Both the position numbers and the translations under genes were made by a program. 64,000 bases of DNA from Chamaesiphon sp. Lineage in GTDB: Bacteria > Cyanobacteriota > Cyanobacteriia > Cyanobacteriales > Chamaesiphonaceae. The notes below the pieces were generated by a model, which ran no database searches, was not told the DNA's origin, and was given only the letters and a program-made list of their open reading frames with translations. Positions within the stretch are counted from its first letter, which is position 1. Each line of letters begins with the position of its first letter. Location of the stretch: the NCBI GenBank assembly GCA_965246715.1, contig CBDFFH010000002.1, positions 224,001 through 288,000 of the forward strand, in the 5' to 3' direction. Shown here piece after piece: positions 3,521-46,092 of the stretch.

Positions 3521-3530
3521 TTCAACCAAT

Positions 3531-3753
3531 CTAACTCCCGCCAATTCGAGCAACATCGCGAGAATTCTCCTCAAAAGCAGCATCGAGCGCATCATCGCCA
3601 CTCAACCCCGAAGCCAGCGCATTCTGGATCGCTTGCAACACCCGTTTATAGTCACGCGGCATCACCTTCACAAACTTGGGTACCATCTCATCCCAGTTGG
3701 CTAGCACCTCTGTTGCTTTCTGACTCTTGGTATATTGAGCGTGTTGCTCGATC
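3531..3753 (-). pseudogene. Orphan diverged copy of the last ~74 codons of glutamate synthase
   Basis: Direct repeat of ~5245-5467 encoding ...[47 protein letters not shown]; differences are mostly at third codon positions. Confidence 0.9.
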
Positions 3754-3757
3754 TCAT

Positions 3758-4165: not shown

Positions 4166-4385
4166 CAAGCAAAGTCTCCAAAATTTGAGGTGTTAGCCCC
4201 CGCGCTTCCGCCTTTGCCCCAATATCATCCATGATTTGTTGCAATGAAACGTCAGATGGAGCGAATAGTTCGCGAACATGCAACGATAGAAGCAACTGGA
4301 TCTTCTGTTGTTGCTCTGCTGATGCTTGGCTATATGCAAGAGCCGTAGGGACATCGACAGGAATAGAAATCGTAGTATTTGTCAT
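4155..4385 (-). CDS. Putative antitoxin of the PIN toxin
   Basis: Small ORF overlapping the toxin start; ends ...KAEARGLTPQILETLLGDE. Confidence 0.7.
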   Translation of the reverse strand: MTNTTISIPVDVPTALAYSQASAEQQQKIQLLLSLHVRELFAPSDVSLQQIMDDIGAKAEARGLTPQILETLLGDE

Positions 4386-4532
4386 CACTGCTCTCCTTAA
4401 TTTCAAATGAATGGAAATTGCTAACAGAAGAGCAATATTACCCATCAACCTGCTCTTATCTCACTCTATGTCTTGATTATAGCTTTAGACTGTTAGGCTC
4501 GGATTAACGGCTCTATCTCGATCTAGATTCGT

Positions 4533-4862
4533 TTAAAAATTTGGTTTGACGTGCTTAGTCCAGACTTCCATCAAAGCTCTAGCATCACTCGATGATAATT
4601 CCCCTAATTTTCTAATCAATAACGATCGCTCTAGACAATCGAGACGGGACAATCGCACAGTCGAAGCAACCCGCAATCCACAGATCTCCCAGTCAATTAA
4701 CACCACATCTGTTTGAGTCCTTGGTTTAGATGAAGTTACCGCTGCTACCACAACATCATCTCCATCAATCCAGAGGATTAAAACAGGTCTTTTTTTAGAT
4801 GCTGAACCATCGGTGAAAGTTATTTCAGCTATCCATAATTCACCTGCTTTAACAGTCATCAT
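4533..4862 (-). CDS. PemK/MazF-family toxin
   Basis: GELWIAEITFTDGSASKKRPVLIL motif. Confidence 0.85.
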   Translation of the reverse strand: MMTVKAGELWIAEITFTDGSASKKRPVLILWIDGDDVVVAAVTSSKPRTQTDVVLIDWEICGLRVASTVRLSRLDCLERSLLIRKLGELSSSDARALMEVWTKHVKPNF

Positions 4863-5118
4863 AGAGCTTATCATCTTCTGAACTGTAGCTATTTAGAAAG
4901 GCATCATGAGTACGAATGGAACCTGTCGAATTCGGTTGAATGGCAATCCGATCGATTAAATCCAGCACATCTTGTTCTACAGTGCGCGAGGGTAGGGAGT
5001 TGAGAACATCGCGATCTGCCAAGTCAATAATTTCTGAGATATATCGACGGACTCGATCGGATATTTCTGGTTTCCACTCTTGCAATTTAATTCCTAATCT
5101 CTCAGCCAGGGCATCCAT
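4849..5118 (-). CDS. Putative antitoxin upstream of the PemK toxin
   Basis: Small acidic ORF overlapping the toxin start; start codon uncertain (5118 or 5130). Confidence 0.65.
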   Translation of the reverse strand: MDALAERLGIKLQEWKPEISDRVRRYISEIIDLADRDVLNSLPSRTVEQDVLDLIDRIAIQPNSTGSIRTHDAFLNSYSSEDDKLYDDC

Positions 5119-5244
5119 CGGTATCTCCATTGCAGATGATGAAACATCTCTATTTTGCCAAGTTTGTGACAACATCACAAGTAATAGGAGCAATACTCTT
5201 GGACTATTCTATTGGCATTGCTCCACTCGATCCCCCATATTTAT

Positions 5245-8200
5245 CTAACTCCCCCCAATTCGAGCCACATCGCGGGAATTCTCTTCAAAAGCAGCATCGA
5301 GCGCATCATCACCACTCAAACCCGAAGCCAGCGCATTCTGAATCGCTTGCAACACCCGTTTATAGTCACGCGGCATCACCTTCACAAACTTCGGCACCAT
5401 TTCATCCCAATTCGCTAGAACTGCGATCGCTTTCTGACTCTTGGTATATTGAGCGTGTTTGGAGATCGAATCCTTCAACTTACCAATCTCTTCAGCATCA
5501 CTCAGAGTTTCCAAACCCACCATCTGAGTATTGCAGCGTGTCGGGAAATCACCCTGCTCGTCGAGGATATAAGCAACACCGCCACTCATCCCCGCCGCGA
5601 AATTGCGTCCGGTTTTACCCAAGACGATGACTTGTCCGCCTGTCATGTATTCACAACCATGATCGCCGATTGATTCTACAATCGCACTCACCCCAGAGTT
5701 ACGGACACAGAAACGTTCGCCAGCCATGCCGTTGATGTAGATTTCGCCGCTGGTGGCTCCGTAGAGGGCGACGTTGCCGACGATGACGTTTTCGGCGGCG
5801 ATGAAGGTGGATTTGGGCGAGGGATAGAGGATGATTTTACCGCCGCTGAGTCCTTTGCCGATGTAGTCGTTGGCATCACCTTCGAGTTCGAGGGTGACTC
5901 CTTGGGGAATAAATGCACCGAAGCTTTGTCCAGCACTACCTTGGAATTTGAGGTGGACGGTATCGGCGGGGAGTCCGTGCCAGTGGTTTTTGGTGATTTC
6001 GTTACCGAGAATGGTGCCGACGGCGCGGTTGACGTTGCAGATGGGGAGGGTGGCTTTGGTTGGTGTGCCATCAAGAATCGAGTCTTGGCACAGGTCTAAT
6101 AAAGTAGTAATATCGAGCGATTTGTCAAGTCCATGATCTTGGGAAATCTGTTGATAGCGTCCGACTTCTGCTCCAGCTTCCGGCTGGTAGAGGAGGTTGG
6201 AGAGGTCGATATTTTTGGCTTTCCAATGGGCGATCGCTTGTTTGGATTCCAGGATATCGGTGCGCCCGACCATTTCGTTGAGGGTACGGAAGCCGAGGGT
6301 TGCCATGATTTCCCGTAAGTCTTGGGCGATAAACCGCATGAAATTGACGGTGTGGGCGGGATCTCCGGTATAGGTGGCGCGGAGTTCGGGGTTTTGGGTG
6401 GCGATTCCGGCGGGACAGGTATTCAGATGGCAGACGCGCATCATAATACAGCCGAGGGTGACTAGCGGGGCGGTGGAGAAGCCGAATTCTTCGGCACCTA
6501 GCAGGGCGGCGATGGCGATGTCCCGTCCGGTTTTGAGTTGTCCGTCGGTTTCGACGACGATCCGGCTGCGGAGGTTATTCAGGACGAGGGTTTGGTGGGT
6601 TTCGGCGAGTCCGAGTTCCCAGGGGAGTCCGGCGTGTTTGATTGAGGTTTGGGGCGATGCTCCGGTACCGCCGTCGAAGCCGGAGATTAGTACTACATCG
6701 GCGTGGGCTTTGGCGACTCCGGCGGCGATCGTGCCGACTCCGACTTCGGATACTAGTTTGACGTTGATTCGGGCTTCCCGATTGGCGTTTTTGAGATCGT
6801 GGATTAGTTCGGCGAGATCTTCGATCGAGTAGATATCGTGGTGCGGTGGTGGTGAAATTAGCCCTACACCTGGGGTAGAGTGACGGACTTTGGCAATCCA
6901 GGGATAAACTTTTTTACCTGGGAGTTGTCCGCCTTCACCTGGTTTGGCTCCCTGTGCCATTTTGATTTGGATTTCTTTGGCTTGGGAGAGGTAGAGGCTG
7001 GTGACACCGAATCGTCCCGATGCGACTTGTTTGATGCCGCTATTTTTGGAGTCGCCGAGTTCGTTCGTCCAGGTGTAGCGTTCGGGATCTTCGCCGCCTT
7101 CGCCTGTGTTGGATTTACCGCCGATTCGGTTCATGGCGATCGCCAGTCCTTCATGTGCTTCACTAGAGATCGAGCCGTAGCTCATCGCGCCTGTTTTAAA
7201 GCGTTTGAGGATATTCTCGATCGGTTCTACTTCTTCAATGGGGATGGCTGTTTGCGGTTTAAAATCTAACAATCCGCGCAGGGTGAAGTGTTTTTTATCC
7301 TGCTCGTTAATCAGCTTGGCGTATTTTTGATAGATGTCGTATTTACCCGTCCGCGCCGCCTGTTGAAGCAAGTGAATACTTTCGGGGCTGAATAGATGCT
7401 CTTCACCATCTTTGCGCCACTGATAATCACCACCGACATCTAGTGTCGCACCTTTGGCTGGTCGATCGGGGAAAGCGTGAGTATGACGGGTAATCGTTTC
7501 TTGGGTAATTATGCCGACATCAGCACCTTCAATTCGCGAGGCGGTGCGGGTAAAGTATTTATCGATCGTGGCTTGATTTAAACCAACAGCTTCAAAAATC
7601 TGGGCACCACGATAACTCTGAATTGTCGAAATCCCAATCTTCGAGGCAACTTTAGTTACGCCTTTAGTGGCGGCTTTGATATAGTTTTTGACAGCAGTAG
7701 GATAGTCAACATCAAGCAACATTTTCTGAGCGATTAAATCCTCGATCGTCTCGAATGCCAAGTAAGGATTAATCGCTCCACAACCATAACCAATCAACGT
7801 CGCAAAGTGATGAACTTCACGGGGTTCGCCAGATTCTAATACCAATCCGACGCGGGTGCGGGTACCAGTGCGAATTAGATGGTGATGTAAGCCAGCAACC
7901 GCTAATAGTGCAGGGATGGGCGCAGTTTCAGGATTAACACCGCGATCGCTCAAAATTAGGATACTAATACCGGACTCGATCGCTTTATCTGCCGCTGCAA
8001 AAATGACATCTAAGGCTGCTTCCAGACCTTTCACCCCATCGTTAGGGTTGAATAGCATGGGGATAGTAACAGAACTAAATCCACCTTCATTCAGGTGCTT
8101 TAACTTCGCAAGTTCAGCATCACTTAAAATTGGCGATTTAAGGGCGATTAAATGACAACTTTCGGGTTCTGGTTTGAGTAAATTCCGCTCAGATCCGATC

Positions 8201-9888
8201 GTTGTTTGGGCAGAAGTGATAATTTCTTCGCGAATTGAATCGATCGGGGGATTGGTAACTTGAGCAAATAACTGTTGGAAATAATCGTAGAGTAATTTTG
8301 GTCGATCGGACAACACCGCCAACGGTGTATCAGTCCCCATCGAACCCGTTGCTTCCACACCATCCCGCGCCATCGGCGTAATCAGCATCCGCAACTCTTC
8401 AAAGGTATAGCCGAAAGCCATCTGACGTTGGAGAATCCCCCCTAGCCCCCCTTGGGAAGGGGGGGACAAGAGAGACTCTGCTCCGGCTCCCCCCTTATTA
8501 AGGGGGGTTGGGGGGGATTCAGGATCTGCGATGTCCTCCAGCCTGACTAAATGCTCGTCCAACCACGCCTGATAAGGATGTGCGCTAGTAATCTCATGCT
8601 TGATTTCCGCATCGCTCACAATCCGCCCAGCGACAGTATCCACCATGAACATCTTCCCTGGCTCCAACCGTCCCTTCGCCACCACCTGCTCCGGCGGAAT
8701 CGTCAGCACACCCGCTTCCGATGCCATAATCACCAGATCGTCAGTCGTCACATAGTATCGCCCTGGACGCAAACCATTCCGATCGAGTACCGCCCCGATC
8801 GAGCTACCATCAGTAAAGGCGATCGAAGCTGGGCCATCCCACGGCTCCATCAAGCAAGAATGGTACTCATAAAACGCCTTCTTCGCCGCGCTCATCGACT
8901 CATGCGCCGTCCACGGTTCGGGCACCATCATCATCATCGCATGGGGCAAACTGCGACCGGAAAGCGTCAATAATTCCAGGGCATTATCAAAAATTGTTGA
9001 GTCACTACCATCGACATTAATTGCAGGTTTAATCTTCTGAATATCGTCGCCGAATAAATCCGACGCAAACAGCGACTGCCGCGCCGTCATCCAGTTAATA
9101 TTGCCGCGCATGGTATTGATTTCACCATTGTGGGCGATGTAGCGATAGGGATGCGCCCGCTCCCAACTAGGGAAAGTATTGGTACTAAACCGCGAATGCA
9201 CCAACGCCAACGCGCTCTCCATGTCTGGATCTTGGAGTTCGGGGAAATATTGCCCCACCTGCACGGGCATCAACATCCCCTTATACACAATCGTCCGTGC
9301 CGATATACTCGCTACATACCAATGCACATCGACATTCGCCGCCCTAATTGCCGTATGCGCCAGCTTGCGAATCACAAATAACTTCCGCTCGAATGCTAAT
9401 TCATCCGCTAATTCCGGCGATTTGGCAATAAATACCTGCTGCATAAACGGTTCACTCGATTTCGCCGTCTCACCCAAGGAACCATTATCCGTCGGCACAT
9501 CCCGCCAACCCAATACCTTCAAGCCTTCCGCCGCCACAACTTCCGCGAAAATCTGACGACTTTTCGATCGAATCGCTGGATCTGGCGAACCATACACCGC
9601 CCCAACTCCATACTGTCCCGCTGCGGGTAATTCAATCCCTTCAGCAGTCGCCACCTTCTGCATAAACTTGTGAGGCACCTGCATCAAAATCCCCGCCCCA
9701 TCACCTGTATTTGTCTCGCATCCGCACGCGCCACGATGGTCGAGATTAACCAATATCGTCAGTGCTTGCGCCACAATCTGATGCGACTTCGCCCCTTTCA
9801 TCTGCGCGATCAAACCGATACCGCAAGCATCGTGCTCAAACTGCGGATCGTATAAACCTTGTTTGCTGGGTGGTTGAATGGTATTCAT
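5245..9888 (-). CDS. gltB: Glutamate synthase large subunit
   Basis: HDACGIG Ntn amidotransferase start, [34 protein letters not shown] 3Fe-4S motif, GXGXG C-terminal domain. Confidence 0.97.
8433..8520. repeat. Palindromic G/C-run repeat element inserted in frame in glutamate synthase
   Basis: GAATCCCCCC...GGGGGGATTC termini enclosing CCCCCCTTGGGAAGGGGGG and CCCCCCTTATTAAGGGGGG hairpins; translated as [28 protein letters not shown]. Confidence 0.8.
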
Positions 9889-10134: not shown

Positions 10135-10434
10135 ATGAATATATTTATCAGCATTATTGCAACTGGGTTTGTGATATCGGTAATTTTGTTCGGATTAATG
10201 AGTTGGGCAAATGTTAGAAAGTGGCGTTCGTGGCTGACACTTGAAATGTATTGGGATCGTTATCCTAATTGTCACACTGATAATGGAACGAAGTGTTTCA
10301 ATTGCGGATCTCGCAACATTCATATGTTGGGCTGGAACCCAAAAGCTAAATCCCAAAACCAAAACCAAAAAATTCATCGATGTATGCAGTGCAACACTTT
10401 CCTTTACCGTACCGGAACTCATGATTTTTGGTAG
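10135..10434 (+). CDS. Hypothetical protein with N-terminal TM helix and zinc-ribbon-like CxxC pairs
   Basis: Hydrophobic N-terminus; CFNC and CMQC. Confidence 0.65.
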   Translation: MNIFISIIATGFVISVILFGLMSWANVRKWRSWLTLEMYWDRYPNCHTDNGTKCFNCGSRNIHMLGWNPKAKSQNQNQKIHRCMQCNTFLYRTGTHDFW

Positions 10435-10598
10435 CTCGGTTAGTGAAAATGATCGAGATGTAAAATTATAAGTTAAATTGTTCATTCGGTCATTTTCCGA
10501 TCCAACTTCTGCCGCATATCCCGTTCGCATAGAGTCGGCTTTGCCAAAAAGAACTCTCACCATGTAATTTATTCTAAGCTGCCTAATATTTTATCGTC

Positions 10599-11135
10599 AT
10601 GAATGTAATGTCTGTTTCTCAATACACTAATGTTTTTTATATTCTGATTTTGATTAGTTTATTTGCTCATATTAAACCAGCTCTATCTCAACAGCGAACC
10701 TGTGTCATTAATGATGATGGAGCCACCATATGTGGCAAGCCAACAACTGTAAAAAAAGAAACCAAGAAACCTCAAAGTACAGGATACCGAAAAGAGATTA
10801 ATAATTTTGTCTTGTTATTAAAAAAATGTAAAAGATCGGACACAAATGTAAAATGCGATCTGGTAGTTACAAATAAAGGGGCAGAAAGAGAATTGTCTCT
10901 AAATCCGGCATTTATTAAGATTATTGATTCTGCGGGGAAATCTCATCAATGTCAAACAGTAGAATTTGGAAGCGGTGATGTAACTGCAAAAATAACTCCA
11001 GGTGTCGAGTATGCTGCAACTCTTAATTTTGGGAACATACCCGATCAAATATCACAGGCTCAAATTTTAGAGATAGATACAGGCGTTACTGGTGTTGGCG
11101 TTTTTCAGTTCCGCAAGGTTTATTTCACAAATTAA
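10599..11135 (+). CDS. Hypothetical secreted protein
   Basis: Signal-peptide-like N-terminus ending ALS-QQ; beta-rich remainder. Confidence 0.7.
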   Translation: MNVMSVSQYTNVFYILILISLFAHIKPALSQQRTCVINDDGATICGKPTTVKKETKKPQSTGYRKEINNFVLLLKKCKRSDTNVKCDLVVTNKGAERELSLNPAFIKIIDSAGKSHQCQTVEFGSGDVTAKITPGVEYAATLNFGNIPDQISQAQILEIDTGVTGVGVFQFRKVYFTN

Positions 11136-11341
11136 AAATGTCGATCGTGCCAAAGTGGGATTTCTCCCTGTAATAGGTTTGAGGCTCGATCGATCGGTAT
11201 TGAGGAGCATCTTTATATCCTGTTGACATTATCGATCGATTAGCTTGGGTTTAGTCGATCGTGTCGTGGTTAATTCGATCGTTACAATATTTTTGGTGAC
11301 ATTAATACGCGATCGATTTTGCTTATATCACTCTACAACTG

Positions 11342-11405
11342 TTAATTTGAAGCCATAGGGTTTCGTCCCAATTCTTCGCGTAACACTCGTCTCAAAGTTG
11401 ATTCT
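11342..11405 (-). pseudogene. C-terminal remnant resembling a BrnA/CopG-type antitoxin
   Basis: ...ESTLRRVLREELGRNPMASN* lies between repeat copies 1 and 2; family resemblance is from memory. Confidence 0.4.
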
Positions 11406-11552
11406 AGTAGAATTTCTCCCTGTAGGTTGGGTTGAAGCCCGCGAAACCCAACAATCCCAGTGTTTGAGGCTCGATCGATTGCTATTGAGGAGCATCTTTG
11501 TACCCTGTAGGAATGATCGATCGACATTAATAACGTTTAGTTTCGCTTGATT

Positions 11553-11972
11553 TTACTCGATCGTCCAATTTTCAACCAGCAGATTGGGTATTCGATCGAA
11601 ATCTCGTGCATTTCTCGATAGTAAGATACCTTGGTTTGCTAAAACGATCGAGGCAATACGTAAATCTTGAGTACCAACTCGAATTCGTTGTGACTTTAGC
11701 TCTCGATAGATAGATTGAGCTTCTACTGTAAACTGCAAGACTTCAAATTCAGACAATAACTTTACTGTTTCCGACAGCCATCGATAAGCATTAGCCAGTA
11801 CATCCCCATCTTTAGCCTCAGATATTTGGGCGAGTCTACCGCGCACTTGTTCCTCAACATTAATTGCGGTAGTCGTCAAAACGATCGACTGTTGTTGCAA
11901 TCTATCTATCAATACCGGATGATTCCTGCCATAGAGACTGAGATGGTCGGTATCGAAAACATAAAGTGTCAT
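11553..11972 (-). CDS. vapC: VapC/PIN-domain toxin
   Basis: YVFDTDHLS; IRVGTQDLRIASIVL; SRNARDF. Confidence 0.9.
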   Translation of the reverse strand: MTLYVFDTDHLSLYGRNHPVLIDRLQQQSIVLTTTAINVEEQVRGRLAQISEAKDGDVLANAYRWLSETVKLLSEFEVLQFTVEAQSIYRELKSQRIRVGTQDLRIASIVLANQGILLSRNARDFDRIPNLLVENWTIE

Positions 11973-12268
11973 ATTTCATCTTCGCACTCATTGGCAACTT
12001 GACGAATATGAACGAGTTTTTCGATTAGATCGTCGAAGGTTGGATCGTTCTCTAAAATACCCGCATACTGCATTGGCGTAGAATTAATCTTAGGTTCGAT
12101 CGAAATTGTCACAATCTTACCTGTTGACAATTGCGACTCTAACTCGGTTTTGGCATTAGCGATCGCTTCACCTTCTGTATTCCCATCAGCAGCGATAGAG
12201 GGGATTTCAAGTACGGAAGCAGTAAAACCCCGATCCGAACGACTTTTAACAAAAACTTGATACTGCAT
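11969..12268 (-). CDS. HicB-like-domain antitoxin paired with VapC
   Basis: FTASVLEIPSIAADGNTEGEAIANAK HicB-like N-terminus; 4-bp overlap with the toxin. Confidence 0.75.
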   Translation of the reverse strand: MQYQVFVKSRSDRGFTASVLEIPSIAADGNTEGEAIANAKTELESQLSTGKIVTISIEPKINSTPMQYAGILENDPTFDDLIEKLVHIRQVANECEDEI

Positions 12269-12539
12269 TTTTTAGCCTAAGTCTCAGTTATTACTAGTAT
12301 TGCATATTCATCCTGTAAATAGTCCGATTACCGACCGTACCTACGCGAACGAGTCAGGAGCGTTAGTAGCTAGATCTCTCTCCGTAGCTTGGATTGAGCC
12401 TTGAAGCCCGACAATTCCTGTGATTGAGGCTCAATCGCTGTTGAGGAGCATCTTTATCCTCTGTCGGAATGATCGATCGATTAGTTTGGGTTTGGTCGTT
12501 GGCGAAGCCTACCGGAGGTAATCGTTGTTGAGTCGATCG

Positions 12540-12954
12540 TTAGCAGCGAGTAATTTCGATCGTGTTTTGCGATCGCCCAAAACAGACATCAAATTCTCGA
12601 AAGAAGTTAGTTTGCCCAAGAATCAAAGGCACCTCAGAGGATTGTACCCAAGCAAATGCTAGACGAACTGATTCCAGATCCCCTATTTGAATATGCAGAA
12701 ATAAACCTCGTGCTTCAACCTTTGCAAGATTTCCAGCCAATGGTAAACGAACAGTTTGTCTCTCCCAAATTGCACCCAATTGTAACCCGATATCATAAGG
12801 CAATAGATTGACCGTAGAACCACTATCTAACAATGCATTCGCCGAGACAGCAAAGTTTGCATAATTCAGCTCGATCGGAATCATCGGTAATGCTTCATCG
12901 TCAGCAAAGGGAAACTCGTTCGCGTAGCGTACCGGAGGTAATCTTCCTAGACAT
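12540..12954 (-). pseudogene. Retropepsin-like aspartyl protease, frameshifted by a 22-nt insert
   Basis: ALLDSGSTVN and LILGQTNFF motifs; removing 12919-12940 restores ATG(12954) MSRKIEFPFADDEALPMIPIELN...; an internal ATG at 12884 could still give a short product. Confidence 0.8.
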
Positions 12955-13165
12955 GAGTAGATGCCTCTTGGTCATCCCGAATCATCTGCATCAGAACATT
13001 TGCAGCTTCTGTTGCATCGTAAGGCGACCAAACCGGATACTCTGATGCAGAAAAGATAACTTGTAACTCAGCATCTGGAACTTGCGCGGCTAGAAGTTTG
13101 AAAAGTGATAATTTGTCTGGCTGACTTAGATTGTTTACCAAAGGAATTACTTCAGCTAGAGACAT
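12947..13165 (-). CDS. Small hypothetical protein coupled to the aspartyl protease gene (antitoxin-like)
   Basis: 72 aa with YPVWSPYDA motif; overlaps the protease start. Confidence 0.7.
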   Translation of the reverse strand: MSLAEVIPLVNNLSQPDKLSLFKLLAAQVPDAELQVIFSASEYPVWSPYDATEAANVLMQMIRDDQEASTHV

Positions 13166-13388
13166 AGTTTAAACTCCCAGACCTACGACAATGCATCTAT
13201 CATAAGCGATCTGTGAGGTGTTGTCTAACAAACCCGTTGCACATCAACCGTGTCAAGTTTGGCTGCCTAAATCGGAGAAGTCATTAGTGAGATTTTCTCC
13301 CCGTATAAACCCAACACTTCCAGTGTTTGAGGGTCGATTAATTGCCATTGAGGAGCACTTTATATTCTGTCGAAATTATCGATCGATT

Positions 13389-13793
13389 TTATGCCAAAAA
13401 TAGTTTTGAGGGCAGGTTAAAACGATCGCTTAATTTTTCCGCTTGAGTAATATCGATCGATCTCTTGCCATCGATAACTTCAAGTACTCGATCGCTAGAG
13501 CCAAATATACCAACTAAATCTGCTGGCTGAACATCGTTCGCATCCATTAAATGTAGCAGTCGGCTGTGGGGAGTCGATAGATTTTGAGATGGATAATGTT
13601 CTGATTCAAATTTTTCAACTAAGATGACAAACAGATCGATTAACCGTTCTTCTTCACCGCTAACTGTCTCCTTACTCATTGATGTTTCGATGATTCCCAG
13701 TACCCGTTCGTATTCTGCTTGCGATCGAATTGGCTGCGGTAATACATCCGCTAAGAGATTGGCATAGGCTTGACGATTAAAAGTAAGGGTCAT
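13389..13793 (-). CDS. higA: HigA-family antitoxin (HTH)
   Basis: PQPIRSQAEYE; LVEKFESEHYP; C-terminal HTH VLEVIDGKRSI. Confidence 0.88.
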   Translation of the reverse strand: MTLTFNRQAYANLLADVLPQPIRSQAEYERVLGIIETSMSKETVSGEEERLIDLFVILVEKFESEHYPSQNLSTPHSRLLHLMDANDVQPADLVGIFGSSDRVLEVIDGKRSIDITQAEKLSDRFNLPSKLFLA

Positions 13794-14076
13794 TTTTCCA
13801 GTTATCCTTATCGTATTCGGCGTGAGTGAGAAAGTATTTAAAGTAGACTAGCTGCCTAGAATAGTTGATGGAAACAATCAGTCGATAGCGATTGCCTTTA
13901 ATGTTAAATACCGTAAAGTTTCCTACAGCTTCTGCGGAAGCATAGGTTTGTTGAACCTCTGTCAGGTTTTGCCAGGTTACAACTTTAACGATTTCATTCC
14001 AATCTTCAATTTGGGTAGCAATGTCGGAAAATTTAGCAGCAGCTTCCCACAACCTACTAATTGCAATGAGGTGCAT
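13777..14076 (-). CDS. higB: HigB-family toxin
   Basis: TVFNIKGNRYRLIV and LTHAEYDK; toxin-first gene order. Confidence 0.92.
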   Translation of the reverse strand: MHLIAISRLWEAAAKFSDIATQIEDWNEIVKVVTWQNLTEVQQTYASAEAVGNFTVFNIKGNRYRLIVSINYSRQLVYFKYFLTHAEYDKDNWKNDPYF

Positions 14077-14533
14077 ATTATCTGCGGAATTCTGGTCTAG
14101 TAAATAGTTTAACGCTAAATCGCACCTTTTTATGAGCGTTGGCGTTGGCGTAGCCTCTGCCTGAGCAGAAGCCGCGCCGAGATGTAATCGCTATTAATTC
14201 GGTTGAGCCTTGAAACCCAATAATCTCAGTGTTTGAGGCTCGATCGATCTCTATTGAGGAGTATCTTTATATCCTGTCGGAATTATCGAGCGATTATTTT
14301 GGGTTTGGTCGATCGTGGTTAATTCGATTGAGCCTTGAAACCCAATAATCTCAGTGTTTGAGGCTCGATCGTTGGCGAAGCCTACCGGAGGTAATCGGTA
14401 TTGAGGAGTATCTTTATATTCTGTCGAAATTATCGATCGATTATCTATTTCGAGGAACCCAACAATTTTAGTGTTTGAGGTTCGTTCGCATAGCGTACCG
14501 GAGGTAATCGATCGCTATTGAGGAGTATCTTTA

Positions 14534-15763
14534 CTCACATCTTGCACCAGAATATAAGTACTAGATTTAGATCGAGACTAATTCCAAGGCAAGACCCTGC
14601 GAGAGCAGAAAGTCTCGCTTCCGATCGATTTCTACTAAAAGTAAACTCACTGCGATCTGTGGCATTAACTGTTGAAGTGCCAGCTCAGATTCCTGTCTCC
14701 ACTCAGGCGGAAGGCTTACGTTTGAGGATAAATAGACCCAGTGGGTGAGTACAAAACTAATAAAGCTCAGAAGCAGCCAACGGTATACACCTAAAAGTGT
14801 TTGTTGACCGAAGCTAGCCAGCCCAAATCGATATTTAGCAGTCTTGAAAAATCCTTCAATTGCCCATCGACGACTGCCCCACCAAGCAATCGTACTGCCT
14901 TTAAGAGCGCGGGTCGAAATCACAAATCTTTTCTCCAACTTACCATCCCGTTTTAAGTAGAACCAGGAAGCCGTAACCACGCCCTCTAAACCTGATAGCT
15001 TAACTTGTTGACCCTTCTTGCCTAGCATCTTCATCTGTCTCCCATCTGCCAGTTTCCGGTTATTCGGTATACCAACAATTGCTTGATGACGAAGTTTTTT
15101 GACCCCGTTGAGGAATTCGACACTACTAAATCCAGTATCGGCTAATACTTGGACTCGAAAGCGGTAAGTGAGTTTCTTGGGCAAGGTGCGGAGCAATTTT
15201 AGCCCCAATTGAGCAGGAGTAGTTGTGCCTTTACCACGCCAGGAACGGAACGCCCAAGGTATTCTCCACTGTCCAACGACTAAGTACAGTACAACCAAAT
15301 GCAGTCCTCGCTTACCGTTGAGAATATGTATCAACGTTGCAAATGCTTTGAATTTCCCCCTTTTCTCCAATGTAGTCAGATCGATAATTACCTGCAAGTA
15401 AGGTCTTTGTCCTTTGGCTGTGTAATTACTCAACTGTTTCAAAATATGTTGGCGAGTCGTACGAATCACGGCTCTGGTTGGCCACCCATATTCATTGAAA
15501 AATCTGCTCAAAGCCGCAGGTGATTTAATCACCCCATGTTCTGGTAACATTTGACCATTCTTAGGTTCCATAAATAGAGCGAAACTAGCTTGGAGACTAA
15601 GTTTCTGATAGGGACTGGGCATCAGCTCTAACAACGTGTAGAGTATTAATTGGGCGTACGGGAGAATGGTATTCACTGTTCTCATCAATGTTTTTACACG
15701 CCCTTTTTCTCATATTTTGACTCCTGCGAAAATCAGTTGTTATGTACTGGTGCAAGATGTGAG
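14534..15763 (-). mobile_element. IS701-like insertion sequence inserted inside a cassette repeat
   Basis: 17-bp perfect IR CTCACATCTTGCACCAG / CTGGTGCAAGATGTGAG; 4-bp TSD TTTA (14530-14533, 15764-15767). Confidence 0.9.
14567..15688 (-). CDS. DDE transposase (IS701/IS4-like)
   Basis: IIDLTTLEKRG, LADTGF, RRWAIEGFFKTAK. Confidence 0.9.
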   Translation of the reverse strand: MMRTVNTILPYAQLILYTLLELMPSPYQKLSLQASFALFMEPKNGQMLPEHGVIKSPAALSRFFNEYGWPTRAVIRTTRQHILKQLSNYTAKGQRPYLQVIIDLTTLEKRGKFKAFATLIHILNGKRGLHLVVLYLVVGQWRIPWAFRSWRGKGTTTPAQLGLKLLRTLPKKLTYRFRVQVLADTGFSSVEFLNGVKKLRHQAIVGIPNNRKLADGRQMKMLGKKGQQVKLSGLEGVVTASWFYLKRDGKLEKRFVISTRALKGSTIAWWGSRRWAIEGFFKTAKYRFGLASFGQQTLLGVYRWLLLSFISFVLTHWVYLSSNVSLPPEWRQESELALQQLMPQIAVSLLLVEIDRKRDFLLSQGLALELVSI

Positions 15764-15935
15764 TTTATATCCTGTTGGAATTATCGATCGATTAGCTTTG
15801 GATTTTGTCGATCGCTTTGCCGACGTTTTTAGTCAGGGCTTGTAAGAGCGATCGATTTAAAAGCTTCTTAAATCGATCGCCATACCCCAACAACCAGTGA
15901 GTTATAATCGACATACGAGACTCAGAAACAACCGT

Positions 15936-16295
15936 ATGACTAGCAGCGAAATTAGCTATACCGAAGCACAGAGTAATTTAAGCGTTCTGCTCGATCGCGT
16001 AGCAGATAGCAAAGATATTATTATAGTCAAACGAGACGGCACCGATAAAAACGTCGCTCTCATTGCCGAAACAGATCTCAGCAGCCTCTTAGAAACGGTC
16101 TATCTACTGAGATCTTCCGCCAACGCAACTAGACTGCATCGGGCAATCGATCGAGCCAAACAAAGAGATCTCCAAGGCTACAGCCATACAGAACCAGAGA
16201 ACCCATCACAATCGATCGCTGCATTATGTGAGGAGTTAGGAATTGTGGCTCTTCACTACTTAGTATGCTCGATCGATAGCAAATGTGGCAAATAG
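15936..16295 (+). CDS. yefM: Phd/YefM antitoxin; C-terminus extended into ISL3
   Basis: SYTEAQSNLSVLLDRV; LETVYLLRSSANA; native end is ...EELGIVR* once the IS is removed. Confidence 0.85.
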   Translation: MTSSEISYTEAQSNLSVLLDRVADSKDIIIVKRDGTDKNVALIAETDLSSLLETVYLLRSSANATRLHRAIDRAKQRDLQGYSHTEPENPSQSIAALCEELGIVALHYLVCSIDSKCGK

Positions 16296-17682
16296 AAATT
16301 AATCAATATGTGAAATTGCCATAAAAGTGGAGTGATAATTGACATTGGGGGCATTTTGTTATTAAGTATAATCTAATTGAAAGCGATCTTGAGACAAACC
16401 AGAAGAAAATGCTCACCAAAAAGGAAATACAACTACTAACAGAAGTACTAAATCTAGCGGGAGTAAAAGTAAATGCCAAGCACCAACATGAAGGAATTGG
16501 AATAATTTTAGGAGTTGAGTCGAGCGAAAAAATAAGTGTTTGCCAACGCTGTGGTTTGAAAAGCGACAAGTTACACCAAAACCATCGGCAAATAATCAAA
16601 GATTTGGATTGGGGAGGGCAAGCGGTATTTTTAGAAATAAATAGAAGACAATTCAACTGCGAAAAATGCCAGAAACCATTTAGCGAAGAATTAGAATTTG
16701 TCAAGTCAAGAAGAAGATACACGAAAAGATTAGCAGATCGGATAATAGAAGAAGTATTAGCAGATGACATTAGGAGTGTAGCGAAGAAGGGGAAGGTAAC
16801 AGAGAAAGAAATAGAAAGAATGCTAAAGGATGCATCAGGAGATTTATCAAAAATAAAACCAATAGGATTAAAAAGATTAGGGATAGACGAAATAGCATTG
16901 ATTAAAGGGCAGGGAAAATATTGTGCAGTATTAATAGACATAGATCGTTCTAAATTATTGGCAATTATCGAGGGAAGAACCAAAGAAGAAATTAAGAAAG
17001 TCCTGAGAGAGTGGGGGTCAGAGGTATTAGAAGGAATCGAAGAAGTAAGCATAGACTTATGGCAGGGATATAAAAGTCTAGCAATAGAAATGATGCCAAA
17101 AGCTCAGATAGTAGCAGATCGATTCCATATAATGGTACAAATAAATCAAGAATTAGATGGAGAAAGAAAGAAGGAGAAGCGAAAAATCGAAGCAGAAATA
17201 AAGCAAGCAAAAACCCCAGAAGAAAAAGCGGAGAAAGCGGCTATATTAGCAGGAATAACTAATAGTAAGTATCCAATATTGAAAAACGAAGAAGACTTAA
17301 ATGAAGAACAGAAAGACAAGCTAGCTCAGGTAAAAAATGTATCAAGTCAGCTCGGAAAAATGCATCAATTGAAAGAGGATTTTCGAGAAATATTTGAGAA
17401 AAAGGAAAACTGGAATGAGGGATTACTAGGCTTAGGGGAATGGCTGTCAAAAGCTCAAAAATATTTTGTCAAAAGTCAAGGGACAATTTATCGATGGTTT
17501 GATGAAATACTGGCTTATTTTGACAATGGAACAACTAGTGGAGTAGTGGAGGGAATTAATAACAAGCTAAAACTAATCAAACGTTCAGCATATGGATTTA
17601 CTAATTTTGAGAATTTCCGAAATAGATGCTTGCTTAATTGGCACTTCAATCATTAATTTGGCATACTAACTAGTGAAGAGCC
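16247..17682 (+). mobile_element. ISL3-family insertion sequence
   Basis: 22-bp IR GGCTCTTCACTACTTAGTATGC / GCATACTAACTAGTGAAGAGCC (1 mismatch); 8-bp TSD GGAATTGT at 16239-16246 and 17683-17690. Confidence 0.95.
16409..17656 (+). CDS. ISL3-family transposase
   Basis: CxxC zinc finger, LGIDE, VSIDLW, DRFH, EGINNKLKLIKRSAYGF. Confidence 0.95.
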   Translation: MLTKKEIQLLTEVLNLAGVKVNAKHQHEGIGIILGVESSEKISVCQRCGLKSDKLHQNHRQIIKDLDWGGQAVFLEINRRQFNCEKCQKPFSEELEFVKSRRRYTKRLADRIIEEVLADDIRSVAKKGKVTEKEIERMLKDASGDLSKIKPIGLKRLGIDEIALIKGQGKYCAVLIDIDRSKLLAIIEGRTKEEIKKVLREWGSEVLEGIEEVSIDLWQGYKSLAIEMMPKAQIVADRFHIMVQINQELDGERKKEKRKIEAEIKQAKTPEEKAEKAAILAGITNSKYPILKNEEDLNEEQKDKLAQVKNVSSQLGKMHQLKEDFREIFEKKENWNEGLLGLGEWLSKAQKYFVKSQGTIYRWFDEILAYFDNGTTSGVVEGINNKLKLIKRSAYGFTNFENFRNRCLLNWHFNH

Positions 17683-17686
17683 GGAA

Positions 17687-18010
17687 TTGTCCGCTAAAAA
17701 GAAAGATAAAAATCGCTCTGAAAATTCTCAACCAGAAATAATTATCGTTCAAAGGCAGATTATTTTTGATGAAGATTTCCGAGAAGATTTGCAATGGTGG
17801 TATCGGCAAGGCGTTCAAAAAGCCAACAAAATACTCGATCTAGTAGAATCCATTTGTATAGATCCATTTTTAGGAATTGGTAAACCAGAACCACTAAAAT
17901 TCATGGAAGCAAATACATGGTCGAGAAGGATAGATTTAGAGCATCGACTAATTTATCGAGTTCAAAATGAATCTATTCAATTCTTACAAGCTCGTTACCA
18001 TTATGAGTGA
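17687..18010 (+). CDS. yoeB: Txe/YoeB toxin
   Basis: PFLGIGKPEPLK, WSRRIDLEHRLIY, ARYHY. Confidence 0.92.
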   Translation: MSAKKKDKNRSENSQPEIIIVQRQIIFDEDFREDLQWWYRQGVQKANKILDLVESICIDPFLGIGKPEPLKFMEANTWSRRIDLEHRLIYRVQNESIQFLQARYHYE

Positions 18011-18275
18011 GATTTTTTCCCGTAGGTTGGATTTAAGCCTGCGAAGCCCAACAATCCCAGTGTTTGAGGCTCGCTCGTTGGCGAAGCCTACCGGAGGTAA
18101 TCGCTATTGAGGAGCATCTTTAATATCCTGTTAAGATTATTGCTCGATCGATTAGCTGGGGTTTGGTCGATCGTTGTTGATTCAATCGATTGCCTCGATA
18201 CTTTACTCGTTGGCGGAGCCTCTCATGAGAGAATCGGGTAAAATTAGGAGGCTGTAGTAAATTGCGGTGTAAACT

Positions 18276-18518
18276 ATGACAGAACTGCTTCAACAGGTAA
18301 TCGCCCAAATCGAACAACTGCCAATCGATCGACAAGAGGCGATCGCGGCTCGGTTTCTGGCAGAATTGGCGGAAGAACAACAAGCTGAGAACGTATGGGT
18401 TGAAGATGTCCGATCGAAAATTGATGCTGCCATTTCAGCCTCAGAGCAAACGCCACCGATCGATGGCGAAACCTTCGTTAACCAAATTTTAGAGCGGTTT
18501 CAGCGCGATCGGGTGTAA
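18276..18518 (+). CDS. Putative antitoxin (ParD-like C-terminus)
   Basis: Small acidic ORF directly upstream of the RelE/ParE toxin. Confidence 0.7.
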   Translation: MTELLQQVIAQIEQLPIDRQEAIAARFLAELAEEQQAENVWVEDVRSKIDAAISASEQTPPIDGETFVNQILERFQRDRV

Positions 18519-18524
18519 ACATAC

Positions 18525-18824
18525 ATGAGTCTCTATGTTATTAACGTTCTTGCCAGTCGAGATCTGATTGAAATCGCTGACTACTTTGCTGAAACCAATG
18601 TAGAAGTAGGCGAACGATTTTTTAAAGAATTTAATAGCAAGTGTCAACAACTAGTTTCCTTTCCCAGCAGTGGTAAAAGCTATGGAGCAATTCGCCCAGA
18701 TCTCAGAGGACTATCTCTCGAAGGTTATATTATTTTCTACCGTATTCTCGATGATGGCATCGAAATCCTCAGAGTTGTTAGTGGTCGTCGTAATCTTCCA
18801 GCACTTTTTAGCGACCCAGACTGA
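18525..18824 (+). CDS. RelE/ParE-family toxin
   Basis: ASRDLIEIADYF; FPSSG; YIIFYR; IEILRVVSGRRNL. Confidence 0.9.
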   Translation: MSLYVINVLASRDLIEIADYFAETNVEVGERFFKEFNSKCQQLVSFPSSGKSYGAIRPDLRGLSLEGYIIFYRILDDGIEILRVVSGRRNLPALFSDPD

Positions 18825-19088
18825 TTAACTGAGTGGGTTTTCTTTCCGTAAGTTGGGTTGAAGCCCTCGGAACTCATCAATCTCAGTTTTGAGGCTCGTT
18901 CGCATAGCGTACCGAAGGTAATCGTTGGCGAAGCCTACCGGAGGTAATCGCTATTGATGAGTATCTTTACATTCTGTTGAAATTATGGCTCGATCGATTG
19001 GCTTTGGTTTAGTCGATCGTGGTTGATTCGATCGATCTTTGGTGTGATGGTTTTGGGATCGATCGATACGAATGACGGTCGAACGAGA

Positions 19089-19448
19089 TTATTGGAGTAA
19101 GATATCTGCCGGAATATCCAACTGACCGTGAAGTGCGCGAATCATTTCTAGCGTTAAAGTTTGACGTTTAGACATTACTTCTGACACTAAATATTCGCTA
19201 CCAATAATTGGAATTAGATCGGCCTTCAATCGATCTGACTGTTCTAGTCGAAACTCGATCGCGGCGATCGGATCTGGTAATCCGATTGGAAAATATTTAT
19301 CTTCATATAACTCAATCAGAGTTGCCAGTACTTCTAATTCATCAGCTTCAGGTGTATTCGGCTAAGATGACATCAAAGCTCCCGCTCGTTCCAATGCATC
19401 CTGATAATCAGTTTCAGTTTTAATCGGTCTAATTAAAGCAGTATTCAT
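19089..19448 (-). pseudogene. HigA-family antitoxin with internal stop
   Basis: MNTALIRPIKTETDYQDAL...SS*PNTPEADELEVLATLIELYEDKYFPIGLPDPIAAIEFRLEQ...; TAG at 19362-19364. Confidence 0.85.
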
Positions 19449-19572
19449 ATTAACTCTACATCAATGGTATCGTAATCTTGATGAGTTCCAACAAATCGGA
19501 TAAAAATAATCTGTGTGGATCGCGTTGAATTAGCCACAGAAATACATGAGTATCCAGCAAAAACCGACCCAT
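19445..19572 (-). pseudogene. Deletion junction: VapC 5' end fused out of frame to HigB 3' end
   Basis: MGRFLLDTHVFLWLIQRDP from 19572, then in another frame QIIFIRFVGTHQDYDTIDVELI* ending at 19445. Confidence 0.8.
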
Positions 19573-19784
19573 TACATATATTCCTGTAAATCATCTAAAG
19601 GCGCATTAAAATCATCAGACATCCACACCTCTTCCTTCCAGATGCCGAAAGCATTTTTTCGATCTAGTGGGGGTGTTTGCACCGACTGATTATGCTTTGC
19701 AACCAAACCCTCAATATATTGCAGGGCTTCCTGTTGCACCGACTCTGGTAGTCGCTGAATTTGTTCGAGGAGTGTTTGCTCCAT
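19572..19784 (-). CDS. DUF2281-type antitoxin
   Basis: LPESVQQEALQYIEGL; FGIWKEEVWMSDDFNAPLDDLQEYM. Confidence 0.8.
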   Translation of the reverse strand: MEQTLLEQIQRLPESVQQEALQYIEGLVAKHNQSVQTPPLDRKNAFGIWKEEVWMSDDFNAPLDDLQEYM

Positions 19785-20157
19785 ACGATTATCAAGGGCA
19801 ATAAATATGTACCCGTATTTTAGCTCAAACCTATGGAAGCGCACTCATAAGTATCAAAGTGAAATAATTTAGCTAGGGATATTTCTCCCTCTAGGCTGAA
19901 TTGAAGCCTGCTAAACTCAACAATCCCAGTGTTTGATGCTCGATCGTTGGCGAAGCCTACCGGAGGTAATCGCTATTGAGGAGCATCTTTATACCCTGTC
20001 GAAATTATCGATCGATTAGCTTGGGTTTGGTCGTTGGCGAAGCCTACCGGAGGTAATCGTCGTTAATTCGATCGCGAAGCGTGGGCTTTGCCCAATCGTT
20101 GCAACATTTGTGGTAACATTGAGAAGATATCGATCCTCTATCTAGCCAAAAATACTT

Positions 20158-20379
20158 ATGCTGCTAAATATCAAAAAACGCGGTAACTCACTGAGTATCA
20201 TTGTCCCCAAAGAAATGGCAACGAGTATGAGTGTTGAAGATGGCGATACCCTCTTCGCCACCAAAACACCATCGGGATATGAGATTTCCGCATACGAGCC
20301 TAGTTTCGCAGCTAAAATGGAAGCGGCTCGACAAGGAATGAAAAAATATCGCAATGCCTTAATCGAGTTAGCAAAATGA
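20158..20379 (+). CDS. AbrB/MazE-type antitoxin
   Basis: KKRGNSLSIIVPKE; KYRNALIELAK. Confidence 0.88.
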   Translation: MLLNIKKRGNSLSIIVPKEMATSMSVEDGDTLFATKTPSGYEISAYEPSFAAKMEAARQGMKKYRNALIELAK

Positions 20380-20783
20380 GCGAACCTTGTTGGCTAGATA
20401 CTCGTGATGTTTGTGCCATTCACAATGAAATCATTGTTCAATCTGGTGGTGATGCTGGCATCCTCAATGAAGGTGCTTTGGAATCAACCTTAAATAAACC
20501 CAAAAATCTGTATTGCTATGCTGATGAAATAACTTTATTCCCATTAGCAGCCGCTTATGGCTATGGGCTTGTCAAGAATCATTGTTTTATCGATGGTAAC
20601 AAAAGGATCGCGCTGATTGCTGTGTACACATTTCTATCGATTAATGGAATCGAACTGACAGCATCAGAAATTGATGCTGCAAATTTTTTCTTGGAGCTAG
20701 CAGCAAGTCAGGAAAATCAAGAAGAAGGAATGAGTAGATTGGTAAACTGGCTGCAAATCAATAGTGAGATTTCTCCACTGTAG
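20376..20783 (+). CDS. doc: Doc/Fic-family toxin
   Basis: HCFIDGNKR Fic motif; ATGA overlap with the antitoxin; stop codon lies inside the downstream repeat. Confidence 0.92.
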   Translation: MSEPCWLDTRDVCAIHNEIIVQSGGDAGILNEGALESTLNKPKNLYCYADEITLFPLAAAYGYGLVKNHCFIDGNKRIALIAVYTFLSINGIELTASEIDAANFFLELAASQENQEEGMSRLVNWLQINSEISPL

Positions 20784-21271
20784 GCTGGGTTAAGCCTCGA
20801 AAACCAACAATTCCAGTGTTTGAGGTTCGCTCGTTGGCGCAGCCTACCGTTAGGTAATCGCCGTTGAGTAGCATCTTTTATACCCTGTCGAAATTATCGA
20901 TCGATTACCTATTTCGAGAAACCCAACGATTCCAGTGTTTGAGGTTCGTTCGCATAGCGTACCGGAGGTAATCGATTGCCATTGAGAAGCATCCTTATAT
21001 CCTGTCAAAATTATCGATCGATTAGCTTGGGTTTGGTCGTTGGCGAAGCCTACCGGAGGTAATCGTCGTTAATTCGTTGGCGTAGCCTCCGCTTTGCGGA
21101 ATCGATCTTTGGTGCGATGGTTTTGGGATCGATCGCCTATGGCACCCTACGCGATCGATGTTGATGACGATCGAGCTAAATTCACAATCGCTCATGATAT
21201 AATTATACTAGCCAATTGTAGACAATCGATGTTGGATATTTTGGCTCAACTACTTAACTTCAGGACAGAAT

Positions 21272-21514
21272 ATGAGCGATCGAGTAGTTACCGGAACGAT
21301 CGACAAAGATGGTGTTGTTACTTTTGACGAGGAAGTAACGATCTCCGAGCCTCAAGCCGTTACCATAATTTTCAATGCTGGTATTGAAGCTAGTAAACCT
21401 GAACTCAAAACGCAACAAGAGCTAACAGATAAAATCATTCAAGGCTTACACGAAGCAATTACAGGGAAAACAGTACCTCTGTCAGCATTATGGGACGAAG
21501 TAGATGCAGACTGA
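21272..21514 (+). CDS. Orphan antitoxin-like protein; partner toxin truncated
   Basis: Ends ...LHEAITGKTVPLSALWDEVDAD; an overlapping ATG at 21504 (MQTDETQPP) runs straight into a repeat. Confidence 0.6.
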   Translation: MSDRVVTGTIDKDGVVTFDEEVTISEPQAVTIIFNAGIEASKPELKTQQELTDKIIQGLHEAITGKTVPLSALWDEVDAD

Positions 21515-21586
21515 TGAGACGCAACCTCCTGTTAGGTAATCGCCATTGAGGAGCTTCTTTATACCCTGTCGAAATTATCCTCGATT

Positions 21587-21877
21587 TCATGCCAAAAGTA
21601 GTTTTGAGGGCAGATTGAAGCGATTACTTAATTTCTCAGCCTGATTGAGATCGATCGAGCGTTTACCATCGATAACTTCCAATACTCGATCGCTAGAGCC
21701 AAATACATCAATTAAATCTGCTAGTTGAACGTCATTCGCATCCATTAAATGCAGCAGTCGGCTGTGGGGAGTCGATCGATTTTGAGATGGGTAATGTTCT
21801 GATTCAAACTTTTCAGCTAAGATGACAAACAGATCGATTAGCTGTTCTTCTTCACTGCTAACTGTCTCTTTATTCAT
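21587..21877 (-). pseudogene. Second, 5'-truncated copy of higA
   Basis: Close paralog of 13389-13680 (MNKETVSSEEEQLIDLFVILAEKFESEHYPSQ...). Confidence 0.85.
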
Positions 21878-24672: not shown

Positions 24673-24905
24673 AACGTCAGTTCGGGATAAGGATATCTGC
24701 TCCACTCCCGCACCGCCAACGATTGAAATCGTGGCTCGTGTTGCAAAGTCCGGTTGTTGCCGCGAGCGGCAAAGCCTGCCTACGCGGACTAACTAACTAG
24801 TCCGCGTAGGCGGACTTCGTCTTATTAGCCCCGATTTCAATCGGCGGCGGCGCAAGAACAAATCTAGAAGCCATTAAGCCTAAATCCTTATCCCAAACTC
24901 AAGTT
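24673..24905. mobile_element. MITE-like element with internal palindrome
   Basis: Termini AACGTCAGTTCGGGATAAGGA / TCCTTATCCCAAACTCAAGTT; internal GCCTACGCGGACTA...TAGTCCGCGTAGGC. Confidence 0.7.
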
Positions 24906-45939: not shown

Positions 45940-46092
45940 CCCAAGTTGCTACGTATAAGCAAAGCGGTTAGAAACCGCTCCTCGGAATGCAAAGTCCGCC
46001 TTCGCGGACTAACTATCTAGTCCGCGAAGGCGGACTTTGCATCATTAGCCACGATTTCAATCGTAGGCATTCTACAGGTAGCAACTTAGGTT
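45940..46092. mobile_element. MITE-like element
   Basis: IR CCCAAGTTGCTAC / GTAGCAACTTAGG; internal palindrome GCAAAGTCCGCCTTCGCGGACTA...TAGTCCGCGAAGGCGGACTTTGC related to 24769-24818. Confidence 0.65.

Follow-up and report, generated by a model that had tools for sequence, protein, structure and literature searches.

Between gltB and htpG in the genome of a Chamaesiphon sp. (6.1 Mb in 55 contigs) lies a run of small gene pairs, mostly type II toxin-antitoxin (TA) modules, separated by copies of one repeat. The question raised by this locus is where the repeat came from, and by what means unrelated gene pairs were joined to it and brought into different orders. It was analysed in a window of 64,000 nucleotides, that is, the whole stretch of DNA presented above. 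From the sequences compared here, the locus is a real, family-restricted, integron-like TA array resting on a derivative of a REPIN, an inverted doublet of repetitive extragenic palindromic (REP) sequences. We lean towards an account in which joins made at a fixed AG dinucleotide by a REP-associated tyrosine transposase (RAYT), together with homologous recombination within an 85-bp core of the repeat, build and swap the cassettes.

A repeat profile built from the window's own copies was run over the whole genome and gave 14 matches, every one on the + strand, in 11 blocks between positions 11153 and 21587. One copy, divided by an IS701-like insertion sequence (IS), accounts for two of the blocks. 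An earlier note on this DNA had described a repeat-delimited array with all copies in one orientation, and such an array is indeed present. The rest of the genome held three partial solo matches to the profile and no more, whereas the REP hairpin alone was found in 26 copies genome-wide, three of them inside the array. The hairpin is therefore dispersed and the core is not; scattering of the repeat over the genome, which the same note had named as a refutation, was not found, the core being nearly restricted to this locus. The tight packing of genes and repeats also held, as the yoeB stop and the final codons of doc fall within repeat heads. A CRISPR array was rejected on account of spacers that are 118-3257 bp long and bear genes, and of the lack of an Rfam match, and the window gave no Phage_integrase and no Y1_Tnp match, in line with the absence of an integrase noted before (cas genes were not searched for). 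A tRNA search of the window found none. Two other candidates for the nature of the repeat were dropped, namely a coding remnant, for which its variation showed no three-base periodicity (0.13, 0.17, 0.16), and a structured RNA, for which there was neither an Rfam match nor any compensatory pair; no RNA data set was listed as containing it, which is uninformative on expression.

The origin of the repeat is indicated by a relative in which a RAYT gene (NF047646, 200 bits) has a REP doublet upstream. Its head, hairpin and spacer can be aligned with the head, the hairpin and the initial part of the core in the array repeat. Single doublets of the same family are dispersed across several genomes. 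Complete doublets make up 3 of 104 array blocks, the second palindrome being lost in the others and in every copy of the window, and an arm of the second palindrome lies just after the gltB promoter in 6 of 18 cases. Taken together, the alignment with the RAYT doublet, the three full doublets and the arm at gltB argue that the array repeat is a REPIN sub-family in which the second palindrome is mostly lost. The GTAG-tagged palindrome is present, and 55 of 108 blocks retain a hairpin that can be recognised. The doublet next to a RAYT gene supports a REP origin, as proposed earlier, and a cognate RAYT within the genus; this RAYT (at least 77% identity, one gene partial) was found in 8 of the 27 genus genomes. 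Among RAYT relatives from metagenomes, a weak match to the hairpin only was seen at 3 of 80 loci, and the array core at none. RAYTs are described as mostly vertically inherited, domesticated enzymes (PMC5581495).

The core was present in 18 of the 27 genus genomes. An even draw of 301 genomes of the order had it in nine, all of the same family and including three of nine from a sister genus, and no core match was obtained in 284 sampled genomes of other families. A search of five genomes with the head pattern was positive in two. Over 39 loci, 162 of 163 matches of at least 25 bits share one orientation per locus, with which loci of a single match agree trivially. By manual classification, 56 of 69 inter-repeat segments carry a TA-type gene. 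Twelve cassette classes were found in more than one genome, and among their 61 pairwise matches there was no reversal of orientation. One class occurred 11 times with 10 different next neighbours, another 10 times with eight. The array thereby shares with integrons a fixed cassette orientation and a variable order, and the variation in content and order between relatives, with breakpoints in the repeat, is as the earlier note had predicted; a common gene order in close relatives was not seen. The 5′ end of gltB starts many arrays, in which it is the constant left neighbour, and partial gltB copies lie inside several, always in the same relative orientation, while the right neighbour varies between genomes. 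The repeat had no match in a plasmid set nor in viral contigs, the latter searched with one exact pattern only, and carriage on plasmids or phages was rejected for this reason.

We give hardly any credence to the idea that the differing orders arose by mis-assembly or mixed bins at the repeats. Arrays in the metagenome bins do stop at contig ends, and two loci from different bins (L055 and L058) have identical flanks, but the order differs also in a genome of three contigs (G020), and repeat copies are just about 85% alike. Neither would unique cargo genes, precise joins and partial gltB copies be expected from mis-assembly. Contigs of a public sequencing run, which may be the source sample, showed no differences from the cassettes in seven of the eight listed pieces, none of which spans the array. 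Reads at 90% likeness gave joints to other cassette neighbours in two runs and may stem from other organisms; at 98% likeness two short-sided joints were listed, neither of them a clean cassette excision.

Sequence likeness between species is unevenly distributed around the array. Between this genome and most relatives, htpG is 78-81% identical and gltB mostly 90-93%. Median identities to this genome at four-fold degenerate sites were 81.8% for cassette genes (n = 67), a value somewhat inflated by a few rows that are antisense shadow frames, compared to 72.7% for gltB (n = 11) and 43.6% for other genes of at least 200 aa (n = 94), rows being kept from 60% protein identity and 15 sites upwards. 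In one sister-genus genome the cassettes reached 95-96%, against 21-45% for its other genes. Judged by these neutral sites, the cassettes are shown to be exchanged horizontally between species. The carrier is likely to be natural transformation; this genome has intact comEC and dprA genes, and sites of the highly iterated palindrome HIP1 in homology arms boost transformation efficiency in another cyanobacterium (bioRxiv 2024.09.10.611283). An excess of TCGATCGA in the present DNA agrees with the account of Chamaesiphon in PMC4390886.

The evidence for an enzyme-made join comes from the point where cargo meets the repeat. In 50 of 102 blocks the right end of the cassette meets it at one and the same position, which is shared by 35 of 57 unrelated upstream classes. 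Across 38 unique flanks, the ten preceding bases carry at most 0.36 bit of information and the AGT that follows at least 1.3 bit. The left end of the repeat is AG on the top strand, CT on the bottom strand, in 35 of these 38 flanks. Fourteen joins had a candidate unfused homologue, of which five that diverged before the join or were themselves a truncated head and one duplicate were dropped. In seven of the eight informative homologues AG stands at the join, against a background AG frequency of 0.062; two of the seven are weaker, the AG of yoeB being found in just 2 of 10 homologues and another lying inside a duplicated head. One cassette was joined at three distinct native AG sites. At the left, cassette ends lack such precision and lie in many cases at CGATCG within the tail. 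RAYTs studied so far cut at CT, even more than 400 nt from the REP (PMC3333891; PMC8266576), and have been proposed to sequester flanking genes (PMC3333891). Since AG at the join is CT on the other strand, the dinucleotide at which RAYTs cut, the joins may well have been made by a RAYT, and with this pile-up of junctions pure homologous recombination is no longer the preferred reading. CGATCG sites of the HIP type were rejected as the joining rule, their excess being just two-fold (repeat ends 14 of 34 versus 0.21 expected); at gltB breakpoints CGATCG was found in 5 of 43, versus 0.06.

The shuffling of cassettes seems to follow other rules than their joining. Variants of head and hairpin follow the cassette upstream of them (0.766 versus 0.713; equalled or exceeded in 4 of 200 permutations) and tail variants follow the downstream one (0.64 versus 0.576; 0 of 200), whereas core variants follow neither neighbour (15 of 100 and 25 of 100 permutations); kin are not independent, so that the permutation counts overstate certainty. 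All 84 complete copies of the 85-bp core are distinct haplotypes, all four gametes occur at 118 of 120 site pairs and adjacent sites have a mean r2 of 0.05. Core likeness is 0.847 between genomes and 0.858 within them, near the neutral-site identity of the cassettes. A fixed crossover inside the core was considered and dropped, as a base-by-base linkage test showed no step. In its pattern of variation the 85-bp core behaves as freely recombining neutral DNA. Because the core is linked to neither side and all haplotypes are distinct, crossovers would have occurred throughout it, as expected of homologous recombination and not of a site-specific enzyme.

This bears on two readings in which an enzyme does the shuffling. 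A dedicated RAYT system, whose transposase would act in trans like an integron integrase and both take up cassettes and reorder them in the form of circles of single-stranded DNA cut at the head CT, would fit the precise joins. Tandem sub-units within blocks resemble the amplification of bacterial interspersed mosaic elements (BIMEs), and the E. coli enzyme exchanges strands between REP-linked CT sites in vitro (PMC3333891). Exchange at the head end would, however, tie the head to the downstream cassette, while the head follows the upstream one, the hairpin is recognisable in few more than half of the blocks, and 13 of the 18 array genomes yielded no cognate RAYT with the query used. We regard this system as improbable, and the single dedicated system of the earlier note is not supported, in view of the lack of a cognate RAYT here, the failure of RAYTs to track arrays, core-wide crossovers and TA arrays on unrelated repeats. 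As alternatives, the same note had named an enzyme acting in trans and recombination between repeats; both are suggested by the present data, at different steps.

Very improbable is the other reading, by which the repeat is an attC-like single-stranded site that is acted upon in trans by a tyrosine recombinase, be it an integron integrase or some other. True integron integrases above the curated cut-off (L069-L074) do occur in 7 of the 27 genus genomes, several of them broken, the inner arms of the full doublet formally fit the two outer attC motifs, long hairpins form on folding of some single copies (z about -3), and this genome has 23 Phage_integrase matches. Yet both attC motifs were found in only 2 of 98 blocks, which agrees with the earlier judgement that the repeats are not attC sites, and none of 18 predicted pairs showed compensatory change. 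No repeat lies near six intI loci or near the two intI fragments that are all this genome has (C51:439-801, C27:168721-169047), integrases do not co-occur with arrays (5 of 18 genomes with arrays, 2 of 9 without), and a fixed core crossover is missing.

Several observations weigh against RAYT-made joins followed by homologous recombination. The cognate RAYT does not track arrays (5 of 18 genomes with arrays, 3 of 9 without, p = 1) and was not found in this genome, where RAYT-like genes have REPs of other classes at their flanks. Where the RAYT is present, precise heads are rarer (8 of 31 blocks) than where it is absent (43 of 73). The strand with the head CT requires the second palindrome, absent from 101 of 104 blocks, and RAYTs do not act on the complementary strand of a lone REP (PMC8266576). 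The right ends of doublets follow no clear CT rule (7 of 26), and 52 of the 102 blocks begin elsewhere than at the common position, from which we take later imprecise deletions to be common. A shared AG would equally be left by short microhomology, and the low linkage in the core could come partly from recurrent mutation. The relatives are mostly fragmented metagenome bins, and within one strain no circle, joint or recombination event was seen. Damage to five of the nine modules weakens the idea that addiction keeps them in place.

By another explanation, which we find rather doubtful, homologous and microhomology recombination do everything, the REPIN being just one among many local sequences that turned into duplicated anchors for TA modules and the RAYT irrelevant after the first insertion upstream of gltB. 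In its favour, besides the failure of RAYTs to track arrays, are the divergence of the core, about equal to that of neutral sites in the cassettes, the mild enrichment of CGATCG at repeat ends, the tandem duplications that transformation can create through repeats in pneumococcus (PMC3784515), and other arrays of this genome that use unrelated anchors. The gltB gene for the large subunit of glutamate synthase (5245..9888, - strand; NF008730) provides the left anchor of the REPIN array with its 5′ end, and with its 3′ end the anchor of a second array. A duplicated 3′ end (3529..3745, - strand), separated from the gene by two TA-type modules, is the first unit of this second array, which runs on to the left of the window (window 3529-5243; contig C2:209687-229459) and has five copies of the gltB 3′ end, some internally deleted. 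Its cargo consists of TA pairs, an Rpn-like gene and others, and the same layout is found in relatives, in which gltB pieces travel along with cassettes. A further TA array (C51:22695-26475) is built on an unrelated repeat of 50-120 bp, in about six copies, without REP of the present class, and smaller arrays lie at C11:6650-8240, C15:132310-137382 and C13:5976-7062. Local direct repeats flank 19 of 49 toxin genes (PIN, PemK, ParE and HicA, one PIN-domain match in a long open reading frame (ORF) being excluded) versus 14 of 298 control small ORFs (p about 5e-10), some of which are not real genes. As unrelated repeats and gltB ends alike carry TA arrays, accretion at duplicated anchors is a general process in the lineage, which has other anchors besides the REPIN. 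What recombination alone leaves unexplained is the common end base of 35 of 57 unrelated flanks, which share no sequence beyond it and include joins inside the coding sequences of brnA and doc. By the comparisons made here, it is by its precise join and its large shared cassette pool that the REPIN array is distinguished.

The course of events under RAYT-made joins and core recombination may be depicted as follows. The alignment shows the repeat to be part of a REPIN family which is dispersed and, in other members of the genus, borders a RAYT gene, most array copies having lost the second palindrome. A doublet may then land by a gene, or an end of it be cut and rejoined, at a bottom-strand CT, the junction pointing to the position and its dinucleotide to the enzyme, so that the gene would be tagged with head and hairpin. 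DNA consisting of repeat-cassette-repeat, or of gltB end-cassette-repeat, would thereafter recombine with a resident copy and add or swap a cassette, a mechanism suggested by the linkage pattern. Recombination between direct repeats would also delete cassettes, so that addictive TA pairs would tend to stay.

Read from the left, the array begins with a cargo slot (10135..11135, + strand) that has ORFs of 99 aa and 178 aa without a family above cut-off; in relatives this first slot holds different genes, mostly non-TA. Repeat block 1 (11154..11286; this and all following blocks on the + strand) has head, core and tail, its hairpin being deleted. The 118-bp gap after it is a remnant of a brnA antitoxin gene (3′ end, 11308..11405, - strand; 96% identity over 98 bp) joined at an internal AG to the next head, that of block 2 (11406..11556), which has head, GTAG hairpin and core. 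A cassette with a PIN toxin and a HicB-like ORF follows (11553..12268, - strand), and after block 3 (12368..12544) one with a small ORF and an aspartyl protease (12540..13165, - strand), a pair that matches the PADLOC candidate PDC-M52 (PDC-M52A/B); the start of the protease is frameshifted by a 26-bp insert near 12917-12942. Block 4 (13286..13429), whose hairpin is without the left arm, precedes higB with a higA-like partner (13389..14076, - strand). Block 5 (14191..15804) is made of tandem sub-units, the last divided by the IS701-like element (14534-15763; transposase 14567-15688). In the yefM-yoeB cassette (15936..18010, + strand), where yoeB has its stop inside the next head, an ISL3 element (16247-17682, 8-bp target duplication) interrupts the pair at the gene overlap.

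Beyond block 6 (18006..18193) lies a ParD-like ORF with parE (18276..18824, + strand), and between block 7 (18832..19037) and block 8 (19875..20077) a decayed compound cassette (19089..19784, - strand) composed of a DUF2281 antitoxin, the end of higB and a higA with a premature stop, from which most of the toxin is lost. An AbrB-type antitoxin with doc (20158..20783, + strand) receives the last codons of doc from the head of block 9 (20763..21047, two sub-units). Then come an orphan RelN-like antitoxin (21272..21514, + strand), which has a RelE toxin partner in a relative (L051), block 10 (21539..21587), the right part of the core alone, and a second, 5′-truncated higA (21587..21877, - strand) that is 88% identical to the first. 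After it come a probable IS remnant, without family match, and htpG.

Pfam and NCBIfam back the PIN, aspartyl protease, HigB, YefM, YoeB, ParE, DUF2281/VapB-type, AbrB/MazE and Doc assignments, and the RelN-like antitoxin scored below cut-off. The HicB-like, ParD-like and HigA ORFs had no Pfam match at E 0.01, and for these we assume the names from position. The families of the nine modules listed in the earlier note were mostly confirmed, except that DUF2281 is not paired with VapC but fused to the higB end. Four modules appear intact (HicB-like/PIN, HigBA, ParD-like/ParE and AbrB/Doc); yefM-yoeB, the protease pair, the DUF2281-higB-higA unit, the orphan antitoxin and the last higA are damaged, and the array in this genome looks partly decayed. 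In one run (X1), the contig of the AbrB/Doc cassette (20153-20825) had a depth three times that of its neighbours and six differences, which may reflect a near-identical copy in a co-occurring organism. Among relatives, a predicted ADP-ribosyltransferase (Tox-ART-HYD1) with a DUF6881 partner forms a cassette (L024:7691-8367; L029:2247-2522), and HNH pairs, Uma2 and Rpn-like genes are likewise carried.

The 26-bp inserts within the repeats are a separate element found genome-wide. The family of 26-28 bp inserts occupies CGATCG-type sites throughout the genome, with 54 copies of one variant at two mismatches, and its positions in the window include 12497, 12917, 14370 and 18076, one insert disrupting the protease gene. 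It resembles the SDR5 inserts mentioned in PMC4390886. Elsewhere in the window, a 289-bp tandem duplication and a 198-bp duplication between two small ORFs lie at 47704-48281 and 59728-60512, and another palindromic repeat has two copies (24769-24848 and 45989-46068). At C52:102124-103196 a gene pair, which we take to be XisH/XisI-like, lies between 91-bp direct repeats in the manner of TA modules. Between species gltB (window 5245-9888; L081) is much more alike than other genes and often in pieces. A genome in three contigs (G011) gave no full-length gltB match; it retains 3′ pieces whose cargo looks nearly identical to that of the present genome, and the small-subunit gene is kept. In 7 of 18 loci, L038 and L051 among them, a GTA-N8-TAC motif, presumably similar to an NtcA site, stands upstream of gltB at the edge of the conserved promoter, directly ahead of the variable cargo slot. 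The 3′ end of uvrA (L034, L062, L066) is an apparent hotspot of duplicated ends; array pieces adjoin it, once with a gltB fragment.

Among known systems, REPIN/BIME and RAYT loci share with the array the GTAG hairpin, the CT end and tandem sub-units; the inverted doublet is complete in few array blocks and in dispersed relatives, and a RAYT flanked by the same REP class occurs in other genus members and not here. Its units are, on the other hand, mostly half-doublets in one orientation about 0.6-1.2 kb apart, and the gene pairs between them move between species. In the literature searched, with few subscription papers covered, no account was found of this array, nor of TA cassette arrays bounded by REPs. 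Bacteroidales rAID arrays have repeat-separated toxin-related genes, including orphan protective genes, beside an XerD-like recombinase; in the loci examined here, by contrast, no recombinase gene adjoins the arrays. Neisseria minimal mobile elements are exchanged by transformation between conserved flanks. They are alike in the horizontal exchange of cassettes at a fixed locus (PMC2649163), but here exchange is additive, arrays are long and a mobile palindrome is the anchor instead of two conserved genes, the right neighbour differing between genomes. The sedentary chromosomal integrons of Vibrio also have tandem, repeat-bounded and tightly packed cassettes that are reordered between strains, and differ in having the adjacent intI/attI, the attC structure and the fixed crossover that this array lacks, in which, moreover, TA pairs form the majority of the cassettes; the likeness lies in layout, not machinery. 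It probably extends to selection, as TA cassettes in Vibrio integrons carry promoters, punish excision and kill over-excising cells (PMC13108822).

Gene capture by RAYTs and REPINs has been proposed (PMC3333891), and the literature searched gave no natural array on which to test it. We suggest tentatively, as a possibility held with low confidence, that a REP doublet and its RAYT are a gene-capture device, the enzyme tagging or trimming foreign DNA at a CT beside the palindrome and the tagged genes feeding a cross-species pool of TA and defence cassettes assembled at gltB. Dozens of independent joins lie on the predicted dinucleotide, and both an enzyme (L067) and complete substrates (L023, L024, L031) are identified, so that the idea becomes a simple biochemical test. 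If true, the array would parallel the integron without an integrase, and a RAYT would for the first time have a host-level role in gene acquisition. The arrays are a pool of candidate defence genes, and in this family TA modules can accumulate and cross between species whose core genes are near synonymous saturation, by way of short duplicated anchors and one unusually conserved gene.

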